DNA of 64,000 nt from Bdellovibrionaceae bacterium UBA6776. GTDB lineage: Bacteria; Bdellovibrionota; Bdellovibrionia; Bdellovibrionales; UBA1609. Shown in pieces: positions 10,472-55,724 of this stretch. The position numbers and the translations under genes are program-made. The stretch is taken from contig DKGG01000023.1 of NCBI GenBank assembly GCA_002453155.1, positions 13,785-77,784 of the forward strand. The letters run 5' to 3'. The notes beneath the pieces are model-generated. The model did not search any database. It had not been told where the DNA came from and saw nothing but the letters and a program-made list of their open reading frames with translations. How positions within the stretch are numbered: position 1 is the first letter of the stretch; every line of letters starts with the position of its first letter.

Positions 10472-11109
10472 TGAAACACTCAATCAAAGTCGGAATTATT
10501 GCCGGTTTGTCTATTGGAGCTTTGGCTTTCGCAAAAACCAACGTGAAAGAGGCTTTGAGTCAGTTGAAAGAAAACGAAGTCAACGCCAAAGACAACTTGA
10601 AACAGTATGAAGTGAACCGTGAGATTTCAAAGAAGAATGCGGAAGAAGTGACTTCGGCGATCAAAGAACTTCGTGCGCAGAGAAAGGCCTTGGGAGAGAA
10701 CTCTCAAAACCTCGAGAAGAATCGAGCCATTTTGGATGCGATGAAGAAAAAAATCGTGGTTTTCAAGAAGCAAGAGCAGGATCTGTTAAAGACCGAAGAG
10801 GCGCAGAAGGCTCAGTTGCAGGCATTGATTGACAAGTTGGAATCCAATCGCTTGAAGCGAGAGCAGAACATTGCTGCTTATGACCAGAAGATCGTTGAGA
10901 TCGAGAATGAAAAGCAGAACTGGGACCGTCAGAAGTCCGAGATGGTTGCCATTCATGAAGAGATCAATGCGAAGGAGAAAGTGGCCTTGAAAGAGCGCGA
11001 GAAGTGGATCAATAAGTACAAGGGCTATGGTTCTGAGGCGAAGAAGTGGGACCGTCAGGCCGCCAGCGCAGAAGAAACTCGTGTTAAGTTCGAGCAACTG
11101 AACAAGTAG
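10471..11109 (+). CDS. Secreted coiled-coil protein
   Basis: 212 aa with a signal peptide (ALAFA). It has heptad-like E/K/Q-rich sequence and is the last gene of the coupled operon. Confidence 0.65.
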   Translation: MKHSIKVGIIAGLSIGALAFAKTNVKEALSQLKENEVNAKDNLKQYEVNREISKKNAEEVTSAIKELRAQRKALGENSQNLEKNRAILDAMKKKIVVFKKQEQDLLKTEEAQKAQLQALIDKLESNRLKREQNIAAYDQKIVEIENEKQNWDRQKSEMVAIHEEINAKEKVALKEREKWINKYKGYGSEAKKWDRQAASAEETRVKFEQLNK

Positions 11110-11127
11110 GATTTTTCTTTCTATTTT

Positions 11128-11480
11128 CAATTCTATCTTCTTCTCAGACGGGACACGTCCGTCCTTGGCCTCGCCAGCATTTGCCTTTCAGGCAAAGCGC
11201 ATCCTGCTTGCTGGAGGTCCCTTTCTGAAAAGAATTTAGAATTGAATATGGAAATTGAAGTTTTCGTCCTTCAGTGAATTCACCTGCATTTTTATTCACG
11301 CCTTCATTTCTATCTTCTTCTCAGACGGGACACGTCCTTCCTTAGCCTCACCAGCATTTGCCTTTCAGACAGAGCGCCTCCTGCTAATCTCTTTCTGTCA
11401 TGTGTGCATCCCATTCATCCAAATCGTATTTCCACGCGAACACGACACATCCTTCCATGGATTCACCCGCATTTTTACTT
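11128..11480 (+). repeat. Mosaic structured repeat block A - B' - A(partial) - B (left arm)
   Basis: Module A lies at 11128-11248, B' at 11250-11300, partial A at 11301-11390 and B at 11419-11480. The same block occurs reverse-complemented at 13035-13373. Confidence 0.9.
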
Positions 11481-11545
11481 CGGAAAAACCACTTCACGTT
11501 TGCGGGAGGTCTTGTTCTCGTGAAAATAAGATTTGCATGTATGGA

Positions 11546-11567
11546 AGCAGTTCTTAAGAACAGTTTG
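11546..11567. repeat. 22-bp inverted repeat, left copy (AGCAGTTCTTAAGAACAGTTTG)
   Basis: The reverse complement of 12851-12872 matches at 21 of 22 positions. The core CAGTTCTTAAGAACTG is itself palindromic. Confidence 0.9.
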
Positions 11568-11796
11568 CCAAGCCCATGCATTATTTTGAAAAAAAGTTGA
11601 CGTCTTTTTTGAAGCGCTAGGTTTTCGTGAGCGCTGTTCTCTCAGGTGAAGTCTTCTTTAAAATCATTATTCTTTCAAAAACAAAACGCAAGACCTCCGG
11701 GCGCCTTGAAACGCGCGCTGGCAGCGGATTCTGTGGCATATGAAAATTGTGACTTAAAATTCCATGTTATCTTCTTCTGCACAAAGAGGAGGATCT

Positions 11797-12810
11797 ATGA
11801 ACAATCCATTTTTTCGAAAGATTCATGATCGCGCGGTTGAAGTCGCCCAGAATTATCGAAAGCTCGAAGGGGAATTGATTGATCTTCTTCAAGAGCTGGA
11901 CCGCTACAAGATTCATTACAAAATGGGCTACCGCTCTCTTTTTGAATACTGCACGAAGGGTCTGCACCTTTCGGAATCTATTTCCTACAGTCTGATCAAC
12001 GTGGCTCGGAAATCCAAAGAGATCCCTGAACTTAAGATTGAAATTCAAAAAGGATCATTGAGTCTTTCGAAAGCAAAAAAAATCACCTCGGTTCTGACAA
12101 CCGAGAATAAATCCAAGTGGCTGGATCTTGCCAAGTCCGTTCCTCAATCCAGTCTCGAGAGGGAGGTGGCAAAGATTACTCAGCGAGATATTGGCATTTC
12201 CAAAATGAAATTTATAAATGATTCTTTGGAAGTTAAAGAAAAGATGGTGGTTCATAAAAAGGCCGACGTGCGAGTTCAGCTTCAGGTGGGAATTTCAGAA
12301 GATTTGATGTTGAAGCTGCGCCGGGCACAGGATGTGATTTGTCAGAAGCGCCAGAAGTCTACGGGCTTAGAGAGTGTGCTTGAAGAAATGGTCGCTTTTT
12401 ATCTGGAAAAACAGGATCCGTTGGAGTTGGCGAAGAAAAGCGCATTGAGGAAGACGTCGGAGCGCGAGGGAAAAAGAGCGAAGCCTACAAAGGAGCTAAA
12501 AAAGCCTCACCCTAAGCGGTCTTGTGAACGGGTGAGTGGGGATAGAAGTAAAATTTTAAAGGAAGGACGTTCGGGCGTAATCTCTTTGCGCCGGAAACGG
12601 ACGATTTCTGCGGTCCGAAAACATCAAATTTATTTTAAGTGGAAGGGCCAGTGCAGCTACACCGATGAGAGGGGAGAGAGGTGTTTGGAAACACGGTTCT
12701 TGGACATTCACCACATCCATCCCGTTTCAAAAGGCGGCACTGACGATCTGAAAAATTTGACTCTTCTGTGCAAAGGCCATCACCGCATGATTCATGTGAA
12801 GAATTCTTAG
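11797..12810 (+). CDS. HNH endonuclease with DUF222/13E12-like helical N-terminal region
   Basis: GGAGG RBS lies 5 nt before ATG 11797. The C-terminus has the HNH motif CLETRFLDIHHIHPVSKGGTDDLKNLTLLCKGHHRMIH. The N-terminus (ELDRYKIHYKMGYRSLFEYCTKGLHLSESISYSLINVARK) resembles the DUF222 pattern. Confidence 0.8.
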   Translation: MNNPFFRKIHDRAVEVAQNYRKLEGELIDLLQELDRYKIHYKMGYRSLFEYCTKGLHLSESISYSLINVARKSKEIPELKIEIQKGSLSLSKAKKITSVLTTENKSKWLDLAKSVPQSSLEREVAKITQRDIGISKMKFINDSLEVKEKMVVHKKADVRVQLQVGISEDLMLKLRRAQDVICQKRQKSTGLESVLEEMVAFYLEKQDPLELAKKSALRKTSEREGKRAKPTKELKKPHPKRSCERVSGDRSKILKEGRSGVISLRRKRTISAVRKHQIYFKWKGQCSYTDERGERCLETRFLDIHHIHPVSKGGTDDLKNLTLLCKGHHRMIHVKNS

Positions 12811-12850
12811 AGGTCCAATTTCAGAAATTGTTTTTGCCGCAGCCGCTCGA

Positions 12851-12872
12851 CAAACAGTTCTTAAGAACTGCT
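12851..12872. repeat. 22-bp inverted repeat, right copy (CAAACAGTTCTTAAGAACTGCT)
   Basis: Partner of 11546-11567. It lies 40 nt after the HNH stop codon. Confidence 0.9.
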
Positions 12873-12916
12873 GATAAGATTTTTTGATTCTAGGAGCTCA
12901 AGTATTTTAATTTCCA

Positions 12917-13446
12917 TATTCAATTCTACGTTCTTTTCAGAAAGGGACCTCCAGCAAGCAGGAGGCGCTTTGCCTGAAAGGCAAATGCTGGTGAGGCCAA
13001 GGAAGGACGTGTCCCGTCTGAGAAGAAGATAGAATTGATTGAGTGAATAACAAATGCGGGGGATTCCATGGAAGGATGTGTCGGGTTCACGTGGAAATAC
13101 GATTTGCATGAAGGCGGTGTGCGCAAGACTGAAAGGGCAAATGCTGGTGAGGCCAAGGAAGGACGTGTCCCGTCTGAGAAGAAGATAGAAATGAAGGCGT
13201 GAATAAAAATGCAGGTGAATTCACTGAAGGACGAAAACTTCAATTTCCTTATTCAATTCTAAATTCTTTTCAGAAAGGGACCTCCAGCAAGCAGGAGGCG
13301 CTTTGCCTGAAAGGCAAATGCTGGTGAGGCCAAGGAAGGACGCGTCCCGTCTGAGAAGAATGTAGAATTGAATGTGTGAATAACAAATGCAGGTGAATCC
13401 ATGGAAGGATGTGTCGGGTTCCCGTGGAAATACGATTTGAATGAAG
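12917..13446 (-). repeat. Mosaic structured repeat array (right arm): B-A-B'-A(partial)-B-A read on the minus strand
   Basis: Module A lies at 12917-13037, B at 13035-13112, partial A at 13113-13196, B' at 13197-13247, A at 13248-13373 and B at 13374-13446. B' is identical to the reverse complement of the left copy over about 80 nt. Confidence 0.9.
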
Positions 13447-13532
13447 AGAATCGATGCAAGCCTAAGAAAACTCAGCTGAAGATCAATATGCTAAGGACCA
13501 ATATTCTGAAGAACAAACAGCGAATCTGGCCT

Positions 13533-16500
13533 TTAAGAAGCCTGCTTCTGAGAATCTGAATTTTCGCCTTTGACCACTTTGTTCAAAGTCTCATTGATCA
13601 AATCTGAATCAAAAGGCTTAAAGAAGTAACCATCCACCATGTTGGAAAGCTCACTGTGCTGATCCTCAAAGTTGATGTTCACTCCACCGGTCATCAAAAT
13701 AAATTTCGGTAGGGTCGCACTTTTGGCGCGCAAATTTTTGATCAAGGAAGGACCATCCATCACGGGCATTTTCATGTCGGAAATAACCACATCAAAATCC
13801 TCAGGATGAGCCAGATATTTTTCCATGGCCTCCAGACCATTTTCGCAGCAGGTGACCGTAACGCCAGTCTCCTCCAAGATGCTTTGTACCAAGTCTCGGA
13901 TTCCCGGTTCATCATCCACCAGAAGGGCTCGAACTCCTGAAATGTCAATTCCAGGAACAACTTCATCCAATGGAGCGGCATCAGCTTTGACGGCAACCTT
14001 CTCCGCAGGAAAGACTATTTCAAACTTAGTTCCTTTTCCTGGTGTGGAGGTCACTTTGATCGTTCCGCCATGTTCTTGAATCACGTTGTGAACCAGGGAC
14101 AAACCAATTCCGGTCCCGTTGTTGACTTCTTTGGTGGTAAAGAAAGGGTCGAAAATGCGATCAATGATCTTTTCTGGAATCCCAGATCCATTGTCTTCAA
14201 AATCAATGCATACACGCCCATTGCAATGCTTTAACGAAATGCCAATACGAGCATCAGGACGTCCCTTTGTGGCATCTTTTGCGTTAGACAACAGGTTCAT
14301 TAAAACCTGCTGAACCCGTCCTCGATTTCCATAAACATTGAATCCACCACCTGTGGGGTCAACATGGTTGTATTCCACAAGAATGCCTTCACGCTCATAG
14401 ATTTCACGAACCATTCCAAAAGACTCGGAAACCGCTTCTTCCATATTAAAGACCGATTTCGCGTCGTCATCGGATCTTGAAAACGTTCTGAGGCCACGAA
14501 CAATTTTTGCAATGCGATCGGCCGCTATATCTATCTTTTCTAAAGACTTTTTTGCCTCTTCCACGTTGATGTTTTCGGGCATGTTGATATTTTTTTGCAA
14601 GAATCCCATGTACCCTTTGATGATGGCCAAAGGGTTGTTGATCTCGTGACCAATTCCTGCCGCCATTTCTCCGATAGAGGCCAGTTTGGAATTGTGAAAG
14701 GCCTGCTTCTCAAGTAGCTTTTTCTCTGTGATGTCCAGGGAAACACCACCCACGGCGACAACTTTTCCGTCTTTGTCAAAGTAGGGAAATTTAAAAGAGT
14801 GATAAAAATGTTCTCTGCCAGTATCGTCAAAGGCATTCTCTTCCGATTCAATGATCTTTCGGGCTTTTTCCACATCCAAATCATTTTTCCGAAATTGATC
14901 GGCCACTTCCCTTGGGAAAATTTCGTAATGAGATTTTCCAATGATTTCTTCGTCACTTTTCCCGATCAAACGTCGAAACCCATCATTCACTGTTAAGAAA
15001 TTTCCCTCAAGATCTTTGGCGTAAATAATTGCGGGCATGTTGTCCAAGGTGTTTTTCAAGAAAATCCTTTGAGTTTCCACAGTCTTTTGAAGTTCGATCA
15101 GAGAGGAGATTTCATGTCCACTGGCATAAAGAAGGCCACTGTACTGGTCGTAACTCAAGCCCCAAATAAAGTGTTTTTCTTCTCCATTTTTACAGATGAT
15201 GCGATTGCGGAAGCTGACGGTTCGTTTTGACTTTGTGAATTTCTCCAGTTCCAAAGACGTCAATTTTTGGTCGTCCGGGTGAACGAAATCGATAAAACGC
15301 TTCGAAAAAAGTTCTTCTTCCGTGTAACCCAAAACCTGAGAGAAAATCGGGTTAATTTTTTTCAAGAACCCATCTCGACCAGCGATGCAAAAAAGGTTGG
15401 TGGAGAGTTCAAAAAAACGTGAAAGTTCACGAGCGGTGTGTTCCAAATCCTCGCGAATTTTCATCTGTTCACTCACATCTTGAAAGGTTCCAACCAACCG
15501 AAGCAGATTTCCTTTTTTGTCGAGCAAGGGCTCGCCAATGGCGCGAACAATCTTTAGTTTTCCCTTGGCATCAAAAAATTCAAAGATGTCATCATAGCGT
15601 TGCTTTTTATTGATGCAGTCATCCAGGTACTTCGCAATTTTTTCTTGCTCGTGGGGGGCGTAAAATGAAATTCCCGAAATGCGATTTAGAGGTGTATTTG
15701 TTGGTACCCCATGGATTGAATAAACCTGCTCCGTGCAAGTGAGCTCGTTGGTTTCAATGTCCAGTTCCCAGGCTCCAATCATGGCCACTTCTTGAAGTTT
15801 TCGGGAGAGGAAAATTAATTTTTGGTTTTCAAGTTCCAGTTCCTTTTCCAGAGAAATGTCCTGGCAGGTTCCACTCAAGGAATAGATTTTTCCATCCTTC
15901 GTGAGGTTGGCTTTTCCAAAGGCTTTCACCCATACAATATGATTGTCGGGATGAATCACGCGAAATTCCAGGTGATAGGGTTTGCCGTTTTCAATGCATT
16001 TTCCAACCACGGTGGCCCACTGATCCAAGTCCTCAGGGTGAATTGTGGATTGGTGACGCTCAAGGCTTGGGGGTCCCTTTTTTTCATCCTCAGGAAAGAT
16101 CTTATACATCTGTTCGGACCAGGTAATTTTTTGAGAGCCCAAGTCAAAATGCCAACTTCCAATATTTGCAATTTCTTGAAAGGCTTTGTGGTTCTGCATT
16201 TTGTTCTCAAGTTCAAACTGGGTAACCACTTGCTTGGAAAGTTGTTTCAAAACTTGCTTTTGCATGGCGGACAATTTGCCCGGATTTTTGCCAACGACAC
16301 AAAGAGCTCCCAACTTGTGACCACTGGGTGTGATCAAGGGGGCTCCGGCATAAAATCGAATCTTCAATCCACCGACAACTTGAGGGTTGGTTGAAAAGCG
16401 CTCATCCAACAGAGCATCTTCAACGACAAAGACGTCGTCGTCCATAATGGCATAGGCGCAAAACCCTTCGTCACGTGGAATTTCAGTGCCTTCAATAGGA

Positions 16501-26945: not shown

Positions 26946-28485
26946 ATGTACGATCAACGGGAAAGAAATCGAAGTGCCTCAGGGCACCACTGTGATTGAA
27001 GCTTTTAAAATGCTTGGGGATGACATCTGTCACTACTGTTGGCATCCCGGATTGTCTGTGGCCGGCGTTTGCCGTCTGTGTATGGTTCACATTGAAGGCA
27101 TGCCCAAGCTTCAGATTGCCTGCAACACTGAAGTCCGAGACGGGATGGTTGTGACCAACCAAACGGATGATGTGAAGGACACAGTGAAATGGGGATTGGA
27201 TTTTCATTTGATCAATCACCCATTGGATTGTCCCATTTGTGACCAAGCTGGGGAGTGCGGACTTCAAGATCAGTACATGAAGTTTGGAAAGTACGATCCA
27301 GAAATGGCCGAACCCAAAGTGAAAAAACACAAAGTGGTGGATTTGGGGCCCACGGTGGTTTTGGACAGTGAACGCTGCATCTTGTGTTCGCGTTGTGTGC
27401 GCTTTACCGAAGAAGTGACCGAGACCAATGAACTTGGAATTTTCAACCGTGGTGATCGCGCGGAAATCGGAACGGTTCAAGGGCGTCCGTTGGATAACAA
27501 CTACTCTTTAAACACCGTGGACATTTGCCCTGTGGGCGCATTGACCTCTAAAGATTTTCGATTTCGTCAGCGGGTTTGGTATCTGAAAGATTCTGAAAGC
27601 ATCTGTCCGGGATGTTCTACGGGATGTAATGTGAAAGTTTACTTCAACGAAGAAGGATTGTGGCGGGTGAAACCACGCTACAATGCAGAAGTGAACGGCC
27701 ACTGGATGTGTGACGAAGGTCGAAACACATACAAGTATGTGAATGCGGCCCACCGTTTAAAGAAGGTGAAAGCGGGTCAATCTGGGGATTGGTCTCAGGA
27801 AGAAGTGTTTCCAGAGACCATGAAGCTCGGAGAGAAGTTTCGAGCCGCAGCCGAGAAAAATCCAGAGTCCATTGCCGTGCTTGTGACCGGTCAGTACACC
27901 AACGAAGAGTTCAAAAACTTTTTTGAATTTGTTGCGGACGAGTTGAAAGTGAAAAACATTTTTCATTGGATCAACAACCCCGAAAAATTTGACGACTTTG
28001 ATGGATTGCTCCTTCGCGGGGACAAAAATCCAAACACCTACGGTTTGAAAGAGGAGATGAAATCTCGTGGAGGTTTTAAATCCTTGGAAGATCTTCAGGG
28101 CAAGATGTCTCAGTTTGAATGGGTGCTTGTTTTGGGACCGGAAAACCAATCTCAATTTCCTGATCTGAAGGAAAAGGTGGATCTTTTGAGTCAGGCCAAA
28201 TCTGTGATTTGGTTGTCGGCTTGTGAGACTCCAGAGTTGGATGCATTGCGAGCCCCCACCCATCAGATTCCCATGAAGACTTACATTGAAAAGGAAGGGT
28301 CCTTCACCAATTTCAAAGGTTTGGTCCAAGAGTTTAAACGGGGAACCACTGTGATTGAAGATGCTTTAACCCTTCAGGAAGTTGTCGCTTTGCTGCGTGG
28401 ACACGAGCTGGATTATCGCAACCGTCCACAACCCATCGGCGGCACCAAGAAGAACCACTTCACAAACGTGAGAGGTCAGTTATGA
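26938..28485 (+). CDS. nuoG: NADH-quinone oxidoreductase subunit G, short form (about 515 aa)
   Basis: ATG 26938 follows AGGAGAG and overlaps the nuoF stop by 8 nt. It has an N-terminal 2Fe-2S Cys pattern, then HPLDCPICDQAGEC, CILCSRCVRF..CPVGAL and CPGCSTGC. Confidence 0.85.
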   Translation: MPKCTINGKEIEVPQGTTVIEAFKMLGDDICHYCWHPGLSVAGVCRLCMVHIEGMPKLQIACNTEVRDGMVVTNQTDDVKDTVKWGLDFHLINHPLDCPICDQAGECGLQDQYMKFGKYDPEMAEPKVKKHKVVDLGPTVVLDSERCILCSRCVRFTEEVTETNELGIFNRGDRAEIGTVQGRPLDNNYSLNTVDICPVGALTSKDFRFRQRVWYLKDSESICPGCSTGCNVKVYFNEEGLWRVKPRYNAEVNGHWMCDEGRNTYKYVNAAHRLKKVKAGQSGDWSQEEVFPETMKLGEKFRAAAEKNPESIAVLVTGQYTNEEFKNFFEFVADELKVKNIFHWINNPEKFDDFDGLLLRGDKNPNTYGLKEEMKSRGGFKSLEDLQGKMSQFEWVLVLGPENQSQFPDLKEKVDLLSQAKSVIWLSACETPELDALRAPTHQIPMKTYIEKEGSFTNFKGLVQEFKRGTTVIEDALTLQEVVALLRGHELDYRNRPQPIGGTKKNHFTNVRGQL

Positions 28486-29009
28486 GTTTCAAAGTAAAAA
28501 GAGAGCCGGTTCGCTCCAGCTGGTATTTGCCGGGAATTTTGGTGGGACTTGGATTTACATTTAAAAAAATGCTTCAAAACCTTTTCAACCAAAAGAAAAT
28601 GGTGACCCTGAACTATCCGGAAGAAAAGTACCAGTACGGGCCACGCTTCAAGGGCAATCACGTATTAACCGTGAAAAAAGATGGATCTCTTCGTTGTACG
28701 GCTTGTATGCTTTGCGCGACCAACTGTCCGGCGGACTGCATTCGCATTACGGCCAGCGAGCATGAAGACCCCTCGGTTGAGAAGTTTCCGATTTCCTATG
28801 AGATCGACATCCTTCGCTGTGTTTTCTGCGGATTTTGCGAAGAGGCTTGTCCAGTAGATGCGATTCGTATGGGGCCCGAGTGGCAAACCGCGGCCTTGAA
28901 TGGTTCTGAATTCACCTACGACATTCGCCACTTGGCTTACCGCCCACAACTTAAAGGTGGAGTTCCATCCGTATTGGATGACCAAGAACGCCACTCTGCC
29001 GGCATTTAG
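28482..29009 (+). CDS. nuoI: NADH-quinone oxidoreductase subunit I (2x4Fe-4S ferredoxin)
   Basis: ATGA overlap with nuoG. Motifs CTACMLCATNCP and CVFCGFCEEACP are present. Confidence 0.9.
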   Translation: MSFKVKREPVRSSWYLPGILVGLGFTFKKMLQNLFNQKKMVTLNYPEEKYQYGPRFKGNHVLTVKKDGSLRCTACMLCATNCPADCIRITASEHEDPSVEKFPISYEIDILRCVFCGFCEEACPVDAIRMGPEWQTAALNGSEFTYDIRHLAYRPQLKGGVPSVLDDQERHSAGI

Positions 29010-29082
29010 GTGCCAGGTACCAAAATCTGTAAACGCCGCGTTCAATGCGCCATAAACAGATTTTGGTACCTGGCACCTAAAT
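29004..29082. repeat. Perfect 27-bp inverted repeat (ATTTAGGTGCCAGGTACCAAAATCTGT) with a 25-nt spacer, overlapping the nuoI stop
   Basis: 29004-29030 is the exact reverse complement of 29056-29082. No T-run follows the repeat. Confidence 0.9.
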
Positions 29083-29136
29083 GATGCCAAAATTCGGAGG
29101 CGAGACATTCACCCTCACTTAAAAACCCTTATCAAG

Positions 29137-46034: not shown

Positions 46035-46679
46035 TTAGAAGTAACCTTCGTCGTCACCCATATCATCGTCTTCAAAATTGTCGACGGCAGGGTCGTCAAA
46101 AGGATCATCCAAATCTTCCATTTCATCGGTCAGACTGTCTTCCTCAATGCTATCAAATTCAAACTCGTCATCCACCACAGTTTCTGGAGCGTCTTCTGCA
46201 GAAGGTTCACTCATCGGAGCATAGGGGTTGTTGTAGATGGGCTCAGCCTTTTCGACCACGGGTTCTGGAGCCAAAACCACTGGCGCAGACACGGAAGTGA
46301 TTTTTTTAACGGCGGTCTTTTTGGCTTTTTTGGGAGCCACTTTTTTAGCGCTCGTTTTTTTACCAGTGGCCTTTTTGCTCGATTTTTTCGCAACTTTTTT
46401 GCTGGCCTTTTTGGGAGCGGCTTTCTTAGAAGCTTTTTTGCTCACCTTCTTTGAGGTTTTTTTTGCGGCAGCTTTTTTCGTCGTCTTTTTGGCTGCTTTT
46501 TTACTGGCCTTTTTAGATGCCTTTTTTGTCGCCTTTTTAGAAGTTTTCTTGGAAGCGGCCTTTTTCACAGATTTTTTCTTGGAAGTCTTTTTGCTGGCCT
46601 TTTTTGGAGCGGCTTTTTTCGCTTTAGACTTTTTTGTTGTGGACTTCTTAGATTTTGATGTTTTCTTCTTTTTTGCCAT
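46035..46679 (-). CDS. Histone H1/Hc1-like lysine-rich protein with strongly acidic C-terminal tail
   Basis: ATG 46679 lies 8 nt after AGGGGGA. About 130 aa of (A/S/T)KK(A/T/S)xKK repeats are followed by about 70 aa rich in D/E, ending DDDMGDDEGYF. Confidence 0.75.
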   Translation of the reverse strand: MAKKKKTSKSKKSTTKKSKAKKAAPKKASKKTSKKKSVKKAASKKTSKKATKKASKKASKKAAKKTTKKAAAKKTSKKVSKKASKKAAPKKASKKVAKKSSKKATGKKTSAKKVAPKKAKKTAVKKITSVSAPVVLAPEPVVEKAEPIYNNPYAPMSEPSAEDAPETVVDDEFEFDSIEEDSLTDEMEDLDDPFDDPAVDNFEDDDMGDDEGYF

Positions 46680-46753
46680 GAACAAATCCCCCTTAGAATA
46701 CCTCGAGTGTAGATTTTCTCTTTTCATTTTCCTAGTGTTTTCGAAGAGGGTCG

Positions 46754-52056: not shown

Positions 52057-53799
52057 GTGAGGAAAATCAGTAATTTCGTTTTGGTTGTTGTGCTTTCATT
52101 TCTTGCTCAGGGCTGTCTCAGTAGTGGGTCAGCGTCAAAGGGAGAGTCAGATTCTTTGAATGCTGCCCTTGGGACCCTGTCCAAAAGTGCCTTAGAGATT
52201 CCTTTTTTACCCGGCTATGATTTTTCAAAAACTCCTACAGCAAGACTGCTGTTTGAGGAGATAGATGACATTGGTTTGGAGTCTGAATATAAGAGCTGCA
52301 GTCCCGATGTTTCTAAGTCTGTTTCCGTGAAGGTTTTCAAATACAAATACTCCATGATGACTGATGATGAGTTGGTGGTGGTGGCCTATCTTCCCGACAC
52401 CAACGCATATGTTTCTGCAAATTCTTCGGCTCCGAGCCAGCCGGCGGTTGCGATGTTTCATGGGGGCGGGCACAACACTGGAAATCCAATTGAGTACTTT
52501 TCGCGCTTAGGACCTCGCTTGGCCTCTCACGGAATTGTAGCTTTGGGATTTCAATATCGGCTGGGGAAGGTTCACGGCACAACCCGCTTACAGGCCTCCC
52601 AAGATGCTCTCTCTGCCATTCGTTGGATGGATAAAAATGCCGATAAACTTGGAATTGATAAGCAGAAGATTATGACGCTGGGGATGTCTGCGGGGGGCCA
52701 TCTTGCTGACTTAATGGCTTATTTGAGTGCCCGAGGAGATGCAACAATTTCTGATGATGATTATGGGCCAATCCCACAAATCAAAGGAGCCGTGGCTTTT
52801 TACCCCATGTCTCGTGTGAAAAACATCCCCTTGGTTTCTCCTTTTGAATTGTCGGAAAGCGATTTGCAGGAAAATAGAAGTTTAAATCTAAAACTGAGAA
52901 TTCATATGGCCGAGTATGCCATTCCTGCCGCAGGAGAGCCTTTGTCGGAACCCGACAAGCTTAACGAAGATACAGTTCAGTTCTGCAACAACGTCAATCT
53001 TCTGGGCGGAGATTGTGTGATGGACATCACAGAGGGAGCGACTCACAATTTTGCGGATCAAGTGGAGTTTTTTTCCTCCACCTTGAGTTATCTTGAAGCG
53101 GACATTCAGGATATTCTGGGAATAAATGTGAACTTTTCAGACGACGACTCTTCGGCATCAAAAGCTTGTTTTCATCCTTCCGAGTTTGAAAGCAAATGGA
53201 TGCTCTACATAGAGCGCCGAAAGTTCTATAATTATGTTTGCAACCAGTACAAGTATTCAAAGCACGAGTACTGTTATGACAATCGATTTACAAAGTTCAT
53301 GAGTGAGCCAATGAAGCCGATGCAGGCGCAAATTCATGAAGTCAGGTTCTTTAAGAATGGGCAGGAGGTTCAAGTTTCAGAGAACCTACAGCCAAAATTC
53401 AAGCTGGAAGAGTATTTGAACCTTAAGGATCGCGGCTATAAGTTTGCAGTGGTGGTTCCTGATGTAAACATTCCCGGAGACTATGTGTACGCTCCAAGCA
53501 ATCACAAATTGGGATTGAATGAGCGGTTGCAGAAGAGAGAAGGCGAGATTCAATTTGTCCGCAAAGGGACCGGACTTTTAGAAGTGTTCTCCTCGCCTAT
53601 GTCTGCAGATCAAATTGCCGAATTTGATCAGATTCGATTTTCGGTCAAAATCGTTAATGGAGATGTCCTTTCAAACTTGAGGCGTCCTTCTCAGGCCACG
53701 GTTGATGAGACAGATCCTTCCAAACTTCATTTTGACTTCGTTTACACTCAGGCACCTGAAGTGCAGCAGAAAGCCATCTACATGGGGGTTCTCAAATAG
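52057..53799 (+). CDS. Lipoprotein: alpha/beta-hydrolase (HGGG esterase/lipase type) plus about 230-aa C-terminal domain of unknown function
   Basis: GTG start after GGGGGA, with lipobox LAQGC. Motifs are AMFHGGGH and GMSAGGHLA. It is a paralogue of the next gene. Confidence 0.75.
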   Translation: MRKISNFVLVVVLSFLAQGCLSSGSASKGESDSLNAALGTLSKSALEIPFLPGYDFSKTPTARLLFEEIDDIGLESEYKSCSPDVSKSVSVKVFKYKYSMMTDDELVVVAYLPDTNAYVSANSSAPSQPAVAMFHGGGHNTGNPIEYFSRLGPRLASHGIVALGFQYRLGKVHGTTRLQASQDALSAIRWMDKNADKLGIDKQKIMTLGMSAGGHLADLMAYLSARGDATISDDDYGPIPQIKGAVAFYPMSRVKNIPLVSPFELSESDLQENRSLNLKLRIHMAEYAIPAAGEPLSEPDKLNEDTVQFCNNVNLLGGDCVMDITEGATHNFADQVEFFSSTLSYLEADIQDILGINVNFSDDDSSASKACFHPSEFESKWMLYIERRKFYNYVCNQYKYSKHEYCYDNRFTKFMSEPMKPMQAQIHEVRFFKNGQEVQVSENLQPKFKLEEYLNLKDRGYKFAVVVPDVNIPGDYVYAPSNHKLGLNERLQKREGEIQFVRKGTGLLEVFSSPMSADQIAEFDQIRFSVKIVNGDVLSNLRRPSQATVDETDPSKLHFDFVYTQAPEVQQKAIYMGVLK

Positions 53800-53960: not shown

Positions 53961-55724
53961 GTGAGAAGATTTTTGGTATTCAGTTCCCTTTTGGTTTTGG
54001 TGATGTTCTTCCAGAACTGTACGGAATTGGATTCTCAACGAGACTTAAAGGCAACCTCCAGCATTCAAGATGGAGGTGGCTTTGTTGACGACTCCGCTTC
54101 ATCACCAGACTCTTCTTCAGATTCAAGGCTCCCAGATGAAAAACTACAGGATAAGGCTCAACTGGCCTTTGAAGAGATACAAGATCTAAACCTCAGGTCC
54201 TCTTACTCCAGCTGCAGTCCAGATATTTCAAATGAAGTTCATGTCAGGGTTTTCAAATACAAAGTGTCTTTCGAAACTCAGGATGAATTGATCGTGGTGG
54301 CCTACCTGCCAAACTCCAGTCGCTACATTTCTCAAACCTCAAGTTCCCCATCTCTACCCGCTGTAGCGATGTTTCATGGAGGTGGGCACTCTGTGGGAAA
54401 TCCCATAGAGTACTTTGCTCGGTTGGGACCTCGCTTGGCCTCCAATGGCGTGATTGCGTTGGGATTTCAGTACCGTTTAATGAAGGTTCACGGCACGACC
54501 CGTTTGCAGGCTTCCCAAGATGCTCTTTCCGCTCTTCATTGGATGCACAAGAATGCGTCTCTTCTTGGAATTGATCTGAACAGGACGATGACATTGGGGA
54601 TGTCAGCGGGAGGGCATCTCGCAAATCTCTCTGCCTATCTCAGTCAAACTCAAGACAAAACCATTTCTGACGTGAGGAGTCCCACCATTCCTCGAGTGCG
54701 AGGTGCATCCGTCTTTTACCCCATGTCGAAGATCCACGGACACCCCGAAGTTTCTCTCAATGATCTGGCAGAGAAAGCTTTGAACCAAGGAATAAGTCTT
54801 CCCCTTAAAATCCGTGTTCACATGGCTGAATTTGCAATTCCCCCTTCAGGGGAAACTCCTTCGGAACCCGACAAACTCAACCAGGAAACGATCCAATTTT
54901 GTGATCAGGTCAATCGATTGGGAGGTGACTGCGTTTATGACATCACTTCCGGCTCCACTCACAATTTTGCTGACACCGCTCAATTCTATTCGACCACTCT
55001 GAATCTTTTGGAAGCAGATCTGTTTCATCTGTTGGGAGTGGCGGTGAATTTTTCAGATGATGTGGAAACGGCTGCAACACCTTGTTTGCCCCCTTCTTCT
55101 GCGGAGAGCATTCAACTGCTTTATCAAGAGCGAAAGAAGTTTCACAATTACGTTTGCAACCAATACAAGTATTCCCAACAGGACTACTGTCACTTGAGTC
55201 AATTCACTCAATTCATGAGTGATCCCATGCCTGTGATGCAGGCTCAGGTTCTTAGAGTGAAGTATCTGAAGAAAGGACAAGAGGTTCACCCCTCCTCTTC
55301 GGCGGAACTGAACCTGATTTTGGAAAATGGGTTGGCACTGAAAAACAATCAAAATCGATTTTCCGTTGTGGTTCCAGACCCTAAAATCCCAGGGGATTTT
55401 ATATACGCTCGAGACACTTCTCAGGTGCAAGAATGGACGAACTTTATGTGGAAGAGAACGGGTGAGATCCATTTCCGCCGCTTGGGATCAGGAATCTTAG
55501 AAGTTTACTCTTCACCCCTCAATCCTACGCAGTCTCTTGAATACGATCAGGTTCAAATTTCAATGAGAATTGTAAATGGTGACTTGGGGTCAAACAGACT
55601 TCGAGGTCAGCAGATTCTTCTCGATCCTTCGGACAAAGAGATTGCTCGGTTTTACTTCAATTTTTCGACAGGCCAGATTCAAAAGAGATCTTTTTACATG
55701 GGGGCAAATTATGGTTCCCTATAA
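53961..55724 (+). CDS. Lipoprotein esterase paralogue (HGGG / GMSAGG) with the same unknown C-terminal domain
   Basis: GTG 53961 lies 7 nt after GAGGGG and gives MRRFLVFSSLLVLVMFFQNC. By eye it is about 60-65% identical to the upstream gene in the hydrolase core. Confidence 0.75.
   Translation: MRRFLVFSSLLVLVMFFQNCTELDSQRDLKATSSIQDGGGFVDDSASSPDSSSDSRLPDEKLQDKAQLAFEEIQDLNLRSSYSSCSPDISNEVHVRVFKYKVSFETQDELIVVAYLPNSSRYISQTSSSPSLPAVAMFHGGGHSVGNPIEYFARLGPRLASNGVIALGFQYRLMKVHGTTRLQASQDALSALHWMHKNASLLGIDLNRTMTLGMSAGGHLANLSAYLSQTQDKTISDVRSPTIPRVRGASVFYPMSKIHGHPEVSLNDLAEKALNQGISLPLKIRVHMAEFAIPPSGETPSEPDKLNQETIQFCDQVNRLGGDCVYDITSGSTHNFADTAQFYSTTLNLLEADLFHLLGVAVNFSDDVETAATPCLPPSSAESIQLLYQERKKFHNYVCNQYKYSQQDYCHLSQFTQFMSDPMPVMQAQVLRVKYLKKGQEVHPSSSAELNLILENGLALKNNQNRFSVVVPDPKIPGDFIYARDTSQVQEWTNFMWKRTGEIHFRRLGSGILEVYSSPLNPTQSLEYDQVQISMRIVNGDLGSNRLRGQQILLDPSDKEIARFYFNFSTGQIQKRSFYMGANYGSL

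Follow-up and report, generated by a model that had tools for sequence, protein, structure and literature searches.

Organization of the HNH locus

The 64,000-nt stretch of Bdellovibrionaceae bacterium UBA6776 DNA analysed here (contig DKGG01000023.1, positions 13,785–77,784; hereafter the window) contains, between two convergent operons, a short segment that encodes an HNH endonuclease. The gene is bracketed by two inverted arrays of repeated modules and, just inside these, by two copies of a 16-bp palindrome (Table 1). An earlier note on this DNA had placed the convergent stops at 11109 and 13533 and taken the HNH endonuclease gene (11797–12810) to be the only credible gene between them. Both placements were borne out, and the gene was the sole open reading frame (ORF) with family support between the stops; its product matched the Pfam HNH model (PF01844) at residues 295–333 (E = 6 × 10−9).

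The span between the arrays consists of a 315-nt leader, the HNH ORF and a 95-nt tail. The leader showed no significant fold (z = −1.3), and a guide-RNA-like leader is therefore unsupported. An Rfam scan of the region identified no family, omega-RNA and HEARO included, and returned one meaningless miRNA match. A metagenome contig (L064) was 100% identical to the window across 4.9 kb. Since several independent metagenome assemblies carry the same sequence, the locus is not a one-off assembly error.

Table 1. Features of the HNH segment and its borders, in window coordinates.
Feature	Position	Strand	Remarks
Gliding-operon gene	stop at 11109	+	Left convergent neighbour of the HNH segment
Module A, left full copy (A_L1)	11126–11259	+	Fold z = −5.8; starts 17 nt past the gliding-operon stop
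Truncated unit B′-A′	11260–11385	+	3′ portion of B followed by the 5′ two-thirds of A; holds most of the 94-nt identical run
Module B, left copy	11391–11481	+	82–90% complementary to 13045–13135 and 13378–13445
Imperfect hairpin	11415–11540		3′ part of B paired with a degenerate B fragment in reverse complement (11509–11539); repeat family D5; z = −4.0
HNH-gene leader, non-coding	11482–11796	+	Promoter-like site 11733–11760; Shine-Dalgarno GAGGAGG 11786–11792
Left twin site	11546–11573		Palindrome core CAGTTCTTAAGAACAG at 11548–11563, 249 nt before the ATG; inverted-repeat pair I12
HNH endonuclease gene, 337 aa	11797–12810	+	Residues 1–225 helical N-terminal region, ~225–264 disordered linker, ~270–337 zinc-binding HNH
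Right twin site	12845–12872		Perfect palindrome CAGTTCTTAAGAACTG at 12855–12870, 45 nt past the stop
Right array, inner unit	12906–13135	−	Reverse-complement A (12906–13038) plus reverse-complement B (13045–13135)
Right array, truncated unit	13133–13240	−	Reverse complements of A′ and B′
Right array, outer unit	13239–13446	−	Reverse-complement A (13239–13372) plus reverse-complement B (13378–13446)
Histidine-kinase gene	stop at 13533	−	Right convergent neighbour of the HNH segment

The HNH protein

Analysis of the enclosed gene with Pfam and NCBIfam returned HNH-type domains only, and no HUH/Y1 transposase. Matches in defence-system and phage family libraries were likewise confined to the HNH domain, as were those from a sequence search of solved structures (group II intron maturase, McrA, Cas8-HNH and IscB). 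In family alignments, residues C286, C296, H305, H306, N320, C325, H328, H329 and H333 were conserved. The NCBIfam IscB model gave 39.8 bits, over the HNH part only, against a cut-off of 175 bits. With IscB and the IS200/IS605 elements the protein shares the HNH domain alone; it differs from them in having no RuvC domain, no omega-RNA or HEARO match, an unstructured leader and a score far below that cut-off.

The AlphaFold model (mean pLDDT 76.5 at full length and 83.9 for residues 1–222) comprised a confident helical region at residues 1–135, three helices at 168–225, the disordered linker and the HNH domain. The top Foldseek matches of the N-terminal model were all ParB/Noc/Spo0J DNA-binding domains, with probabilities of 0.8–0.99 and, against the site-bound Noc domain, a TM-score of up to 0.67. 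The earlier note had called the protein DUF222-type. The Pfam DUF222 model (PF02720) did not match the 337-aa protein and gave a weak match in 3 of 31 family members, but the family profile, over residues 20–112, aligned with a true DUF222 protein (hhalign probability 97.3%, E = 2 × 10−11). The label therefore appears to hold as a remote relationship, below the family threshold. Profile comparison and AlphaFold modelling of the N-terminal region, which the same note had proposed, thus pointed to a remote DUF222 relative whose model is ParB/Noc-like, with weak E-values.

It is conceivable that the gene is a domesticated nuclease, a McrA-like type IV restriction enzyme or another enzyme of defence or predation, in which case the palindromes would be regulatory or terminator sequences and the arrays irrelevant. 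Some sources name relatives of the protein McrA, EcoKMcrA was the best full-length structural match, and a weak type IV restriction match was returned by PADLOC; the single copy and fixed position of the gene in its species, described below, also fit. However, the McrA, EcoKMcrA and PADLOC matches cover the HNH domain only, and the N-terminal region resembles DUF222 and ParB rather than a methyl-cytosine reader. The family is moreover multicopy, non-coding DNA forming part of its repeated unit, and sites found within coding linkers, also described below, suggest constraint at the DNA level. We regard domestication as quite improbable.

The gene belongs to a multicopy family

Full-length relatives of the protein, at 32–55% identity, came mainly from Bdellovibrionota, and a profile search (E ≤ 1 × 10−30) put the family at 1,301 clusters (50% identity level). 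In the reference genomes scanned, 50 family loci were found. Individual metagenome-assembled genomes (MAGs) carried several family loci each: at least 10 in SJ826, 9 in CA_2019_TPBS_17 and 5 in JTS-AC254. Several contigs ended inside a family gene, as is typical of repeated DNA. The copies in CA_2019_TPBS_17 shared DNA from ~320 nt upstream to 30–100 nt downstream of the ORF, the shared leader beginning at a TTGACA-17-TAATCT promoter. This unit of leader, ORF and tail matches the span between the arrays in the window. The family is multicopy and shows unit-like behaviour. Two Peredibacter genomes have been described with 10 and 13 HNH endonuclease genes, only six of which are at shared sites (PMC13147790). 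The HNH gene of the window belongs to a family that is repeated and probably mobile.

In the window organism itself, an identical protein was found on 22 contigs with the same neighbouring genes every time, while the nearest other relative had about 53% amino acid identity. The HNH gene thus appears to be single-copy in this species. The earlier note had raised the possibility of a selfish or mobile cassette; this fits the gene as regards its multicopy relatives, the contig breaks inside the gene and the leader-ORF-tail unit. A tblastn search with the HNH gene found no matches in plasmid and phage collections, and a protein search for orthologous flanks in relatives returned the query itself only.

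The DUF222-HNH '13E12 repeat' of M. tuberculosis (REP13E12; PF02720 plus PF01844) is among the described systems closest to the gene. REP13E12/HNH/DUF222 has been listed among repetitive elements (PMC10589994). A DUF222-type N-terminal region and a C-terminal HNH domain are common to both, if remotely, and in some relatives' genomes the gene and its flanking non-coding DNA likewise form a repeated unit of ~1.4–1.9 kb. The differences are that the window protein falls below the Pfam DUF222 threshold, comes from the phylum Bdellovibrionota and is single-copy, and that neither twin palindromes nor flanking inverted hairpin arrays were found in any literature description searched.

Two family copies lie ~7.5 kb apart in inverted orientation on one SJ826 contig (L040:8001–9107 and L040:16575–16765). 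Family members also occurred in bins labelled outside Bdellovibrionota, namely L028, L049 (Lysobacteraceae, a 982-kb contig) and L042 (Aenigmatarchaeota), which could reflect mis-binning, mislabelling or horizontal transfer.

Twin palindromes flank the gene and recur across the family

The 16-bp palindrome occurs at only two sites in the 64 kb (11548 and 12855), compared with 0.14 expected. Both are positioned just inside the arrays, and the B-derived hairpin at 11415–11540 adjoins the left palindrome on its outer side. The pair is a new feature relative to the list in the earlier note. The element most closely related to that of the window, P0002 (53% protein identity; Tara contigs L060/L061), has no A or B module. 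Its ORF is preceded at 297 nt and followed at 10 nt by an 18-bp palindrome, ACAGTTCTTAAGAACTGT, and this is the same palindrome as that of the window.

To scan the family for such sites, the 800 nt upstream of each gene were compared with the ORF plus 3′ flank of the same locus, non-self pairs serving as control. In 13 of 32 loci, the upstream region had an identical stretch of 13 nt or more (the longest 28 nt) in common with the ORF or 3′ flank, versus 46 of 992 non-self pairs, several of which represent the same site in related elements. Twin sites therefore recur across family loci. In most of these loci they were palindromic, examples being GTCCCGGGAC, GCCCGGGCAC, CTGTAACGTTACAG, TGCACGTGCA and CAATTCTTAAGAATTG, and their sequences were clade-specific. 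The upstream copy lay 207–411 nt before the ATG. The second copy lay either 23–60 codons before the first HNH cysteine, in the hypervariable linker, or 10–45 nt past the stop.

Linker-coding twin sites were found at nine loci (L014, L017, L021, L022, L024, L026, L030, L031 and L032). The linker peptide islands LQFLRI, QLVPGPV and PVTLQ are translations of palindromic sites. As the conserved linker peptides correspond to translated palindromes, this suggests that the constraint on the linker codons acts at the DNA level.

The N-terminal model resembles ParB/Noc DNA-binding domains, and the palindrome may for this reason be a candidate binding site. Judged from the model, the 16-bp palindromes are probably the binding sites of the protein's own ParB-like domain. 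A helical DNA-binding fold and a 16-bp perfect palindrome as candidate site would both be shared with ParB/Noc and their parS/NBS sites. Unlike ParB and Noc, the window protein has no N-terminal CTPase domain and its putative DNA-binding domain is fused to a nuclease; the likeness is structural only, with weak scores. Literature searches on DUF222-HNH, REP13E12, Bdellovibrio HNH and HNH/ParB/palindrome found no description of twin sites.

At their cores, the linker sites have 6-bp palindromes that coincide with common type II restriction sites (CTTAAG, CCCGGG, CACGTG and AACGTT). Locus L017 also contains a direct repeat (L017:7449–7520 and L017:8822–8890; 45 nt at 82% by BLAST, ~70 nt by eye) that includes ACAATTCTTAAGAATTGC and connects the leader with the part of the same gene that codes for the linker. 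A resemblance between the termini of module A and the L017-type palindrome was judged not significant (p about 0.1, our own estimate). Downstream of the HNH gene of the closest relative, a heptamer microsatellite of more than 15 copies of AGAAACT or AGAAACC runs to the contig end (L060:1660–1806).

The inverted arrays are mosaics of two modules

A repeat search identified four pairs of inverted arms around the gene: 11126–11365 and 13133–13372 (240 nt, 96% complementary), 11127–11259 and 12906–13038 (133 nt, 95%), 11391–11481 and 13045–13135 (91 nt, 82%), and 11414–11481 and 13378–13445 (68 nt, 90%). The array arms are the longest inverted repeats within the window, and repeats of such length and identity are not due to chance. 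They agree with the earlier description of a left block A-B′-A(partial)-B that recurs as its reverse complement on the right, together with an extra A and an extra B on the right side. The left full copy of module A was 95–96% complementary to both right-hand copies, 12906–13038 and 13239–13372. Module A forms an imperfect hairpin of ~125 nt (z = −5.8 to −6.6 relative to shuffled sequences), whereas modules B and B′ had no significant fold.

Because B′ corresponds to the 3′ part of B (repeat family D6), each array is best regarded as a tandem series of [B-A] units of ~215 nt, one of them internally truncated (B′-A′). The order is A / B′-A′ / B in the left array and, on the minus strand, B-A / B′-A′ / B-A in the right. 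The right array also contains a direct duplication with a spacing of 333 nt (12906–13113 and 13239–13446, 93% identical). The longest perfectly identical run common to both arms, at about 11251–11345, is 94 nt; the B′ copies had been described as identical over about 80 nt, and the identity thus stands at a greater length. The shared truncated unit, which is a derived feature, the 96% identity and the 94-nt run together show that one of the two arrays was recently copied from its partner in inverted orientation. No target-site duplications were seen at the array ends on inspection of the sequence. Tandem Repeats Finder reported no array, as the units are too few.

The earlier note had proposed that the copy number of the modules be examined. 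None were found outside the locus in the 64-kb window, nor in the adjoining 8.5 kb on the upstream and 9.5 kb on the downstream side, taken from a contig of the same organism (82 kb in total). The reference genomes were scanned for exact matches to a 20-nt module-A pattern, TTCTCAGACGGGACRCGTCC, which had no match in 185,579 GTDB reference genomes (one per species, this species evidently not being among them) and none in IMG/VR. Four matches in JGI metagenomes all proved unrelated; that scan was not exhaustive, since L004, a contig that also comes from JGI and contains the pattern, was not returned. The small ORFs called within the arrays, taken as a proxy for other module copies, gave singleton protein clusters only. 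The A and B modules are therefore local and not dispersed, as far as tested, and the proposed check yielded no copies beyond the locus.

These results bear on the main rival to an origin connected with the nuclease, namely that the arrays are BIME- or REP-like elements at the 3′ ends of the two operons, serving as terminators or mRNA stabilisers and kept similar by gene conversion, and that the HNH gene is a chance lodger in the intergenic space. Each array has the same sense relative to the operon reading into it, and hairpin A begins only 17 nt past the left stop codon. HNH homologues elsewhere lack such flanks, and the closest relative lacks the A and B modules. However, no other operon end in the 82 kb carries an A or B copy, the module-A pattern is without match in the reference genomes, and hairpin A lacks the T-tract of a canonical terminator. 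The derived truncated unit common to both arrays and the 94-nt identical run point to recent copying rather than to independent elements, and hairpin modules accompany HNH copies in other lineages too, as shown in the next section. Bacterial interspersed mosaic elements (BIMEs) of enterobacteria and the corresponding NIMEs of Neisseria are similar in forming recombination-prone palindromic mosaic arrays between convergent operons, but they are dispersed in many copies per genome, whereas the window modules occupy one locus, as tested. Operon-end elements unrelated to the nuclease are thus unlikely, though they deserve serious weight.

Relationship between the arrays and the nuclease gene

Long flanking inverted repeats were found at none of the 35 loci of HNH homologues examined. 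Hairpins of other kinds did occur beside the gene. Of 8 aligned copies in CA_2019_TPBS_17, 4 carried an unrelated 110-nt hairpin (z = −5.0) immediately before the promoter; its orientation varied, and it was absent from the rest of those loci. In the contig of the closest relative (L060), a 60-nt perfect hairpin lay upstream of the gene, in a place equivalent to that of the 11415–11540 hairpin. The DNA shared among the HNH loci of one genome was concentrated within ~700 nt of the ORF and fell to near zero beyond, except that in one MAG it reached ~1.5 kb downstream. A BLAST-based measure of upstream-hairpin enrichment gave 3 of 28 near the genes versus 7 of 253 far from them; the detector missed known hairpins, and the test was therefore not relied on. 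No description of HNH genes bracketed by inverted hairpin arrays was found in the literature.

The earlier note had likened the segment to a REPtron. On this analogy, the HNH protein would recognise the module A hairpins and mobilise or maintain them, as an HNH counterpart of the RAYT-REP/REPIN systems. The segment resembles a REPtron in that a single nuclease gene, here single-copy in its species, lies between structured inverted repeats, and the lineage-specific hairpins that adjoin HNH copies in another genome, being absent from the distal flanks, would be in keeping with such a partnership. As a mechanism, however, the analogy was not supported. The enzyme is of the HNH and not the HUH/Y1 type, the units are ~215-nt mosaics rather than 20–40-nt REPs, and the modules are not dispersed in the 82 kb. 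The arrays contain no palindrome half-sites at up to one mismatch, and none of the 35 homologue loci has long flanking inverted repeats. The feature of the flanks that is conserved between diverged elements is the 16–18-bp palindrome and not the A hairpins, the closest relative being without A or B. Strand transfer is not known for HNH enzymes. The HNH segment is probably not a REPtron, the resemblance being architectural only, and we consider recognition of the hairpins by the HNH protein highly unlikely.

Variation among assemblies

The locus was compared among metagenome assemblies. Contigs L001, L003 and L004 showed no differences outside the repeats over the 3.8 kb compared. One 333-nt unit of the right array was missing in L001, L004, L070, L071 and L073. 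At the deletion junction, the 5′ part of the inner unit was joined to the 3′ part of the outer unit, the crossover falling within 79 nt of complete identity. L066 contained the reciprocal hybrid, which would be expected from an array of at least three units. Array units thus numbered one, two or at least three, depending on the assembly.

Contigs L003, L068 and L069, assembled from three different samples by two pipelines, have the gliding operon joined to the 3′ side of the HNH segment, from which it follows that the segment is flipped in these contigs. The junction of normal orientation was present in L001, L064 and others. The flip crossovers all fell within the 94-nt identical run. Given ~100-nt reads and crossovers in identical runs of 79 and 94 nt, mis-traversal of the assembly graph would also fit. 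The earlier note had suggested a recombination-prone, invertible segment; assemblies do differ in unit number and orientation, but a short-read artefact would also account for these differences. The variants are what homologous recombination between the repeats would yield. They are no more than suggestive, and the HNH segment may invert in vivo.

A programmed inversion switch would take this further. The arrays would then be recombination sites, and the orientation of the segment would control the HNH gene or read-through into its neighbours. The three flipped contigs, from separate samples, are what such a switch would produce. On the other hand, no recombinase ORF was found between 11.1 and 13.5 kb or in the adjacent genes, no promoter-and-target logic was evident, and the crossover was always in the 94-nt identical run, as for homologous recombination or graph mis-traversal. 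We give this explanation very little credence.

For many metagenome contigs of the organism, an end coincided with a repeat-module edge: L002 and L065 start at the equivalent of window position 11109, L003 at that of 11259, and L074–L077 at about 13267–13325. In about 16 index blocks, the HNH gene was present solely on contigs of less than 2 kb, and the locus regularly breaks short-read assemblies.

A proposed selfish element with local arrays

The reading that we favour, with a probability of roughly 0.45, is that the segment harbours a selfish HNH element with twin palindromes, beside which local inverted hairpin arrays formed by repair or recombination. The autonomous element would be ~1.36 kb long, at roughly 11540–12902; it has its own promoter-like site and ribosome-binding site. 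Its N-terminal domain would bind the 16-bp palindrome as a dimer. I-TevI represses its own promoter through an operator that resembles its target, and by analogy the upstream palindrome would serve as an operator for autorepression. One or both palindromes would position the nuclease for a nick or cut, and the cut would lead to spread or persistence of the gene via recombinational repair, in a homing-like manner.

The two lineage-specific arrays of ~215-nt units abut this element in inverted orientation. They may stem from inverted duplication and unequal crossing-over during break repair at the nuclease site; alternatively, they may have travelled with the element as end-associated hairpins. 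At present they would act as substrates for homologous recombination, with changes in unit number and flips of the HNH segment as the outcome.

The proposed element resembles free-standing homing endonuclease genes, such as the HNH or GIY-YIG genes of phages, which are likewise small selfish nuclease genes with their own promoter, at variable positions among relatives, and a candidate recognition sequence of 16–20 bp near that promoter. It differs from them in having no phage or intron context and no tblastn matches in phages or plasmids, and its candidate site is intact on both sides of the gene or inside it, not disrupted.

Several observations weigh against a selfish element of this kind. 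The gene appears to be single-copy and tied to this one locus in the species. Twin sites were found in only about a third of the loci, and since the second site often lies before the HNH-coding part, they are not simple marks of the element ends. Similarity of the N-terminal domain tracked the sites only partially, with mean identities of 55% for pairs with the same site and 45% for pairs with different sites. The E-values of the ParB/Noc match are weak (0.4–1). The same-sense arrangement of one array per convergent operon would also fit operon-end elements, and the structural variants all come from short-read assemblies and may be graph artefacts. Lastly, a link between the activity of the nuclease and the origin of the arrays is something that we infer.

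A bolder form of the mobile-element reading is that the DUF222-type HNH genes of Bdellovibrionota are an undescribed kind of element, in which the ParB-like domain would recognise the palindrome pair (one palindrome at the promoter, the other in the linker codons or shortly after the stop) and the nuclease would cut there and thereby drive copying, the hairpins, in the window amplified into inverted arrays, being end structures or footprints of break repair. Such elements would be HNH-based equivalents of hairpin-dependent ones such as IS200/IS605 and REPtrons. This reading appears distinctly unlikely.

DUF222-HNH genes such as REP13E12 are among the commonest repeat genes without a known mechanism. 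If the twin palindromes are binding or cleavage sites of the protein, the family would gain a testable mechanism and a simple assay. A DNA site kept in linker codons would be a clear case of constraint on protein sequence at the DNA level. The arrays illustrate how a locus with a nuclease gene can turn into a place where duplication, changes in unit number and inversion are concentrated, which is relevant to the assembly and interpretation of metagenome-derived genomes. Were the arrays unrelated to the nuclease, the locus would amount to an ordinary selfish gene in a repeat-rich intergenic spacer.

Other features of the window

The histidine kinase encoded to the right of the segment combines GAF, PAS, HisKA, HATPase and receiver domains. 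The 811-aa protein encoded upstream of the segment is weakly GltC-like.

Between two co-directional genes, at the 3′ end of ORF 28482–29009, lies an 81-nt near-perfect palindrome (29003–29083), whose 40-nt arms are 88% complementary and separated by 1 nt. On the minus strand, 46035–46727 encodes a 230-aa protein with a long stretch of lysine/alanine/serine-rich repeats like those of histone H1 tails and a strongly acidic C-terminus; its DNA forms an 11-copy degenerate repeat family. Finally, the regions 52294–52706 and 54210–54622, at 72–76% nucleotide identity, belong to adjacent paralogous genes that represent a tandem duplication, and both genes carry BD-FAE/Abhydrolase_3 esterase domains according to the gene calls on an identical contig.

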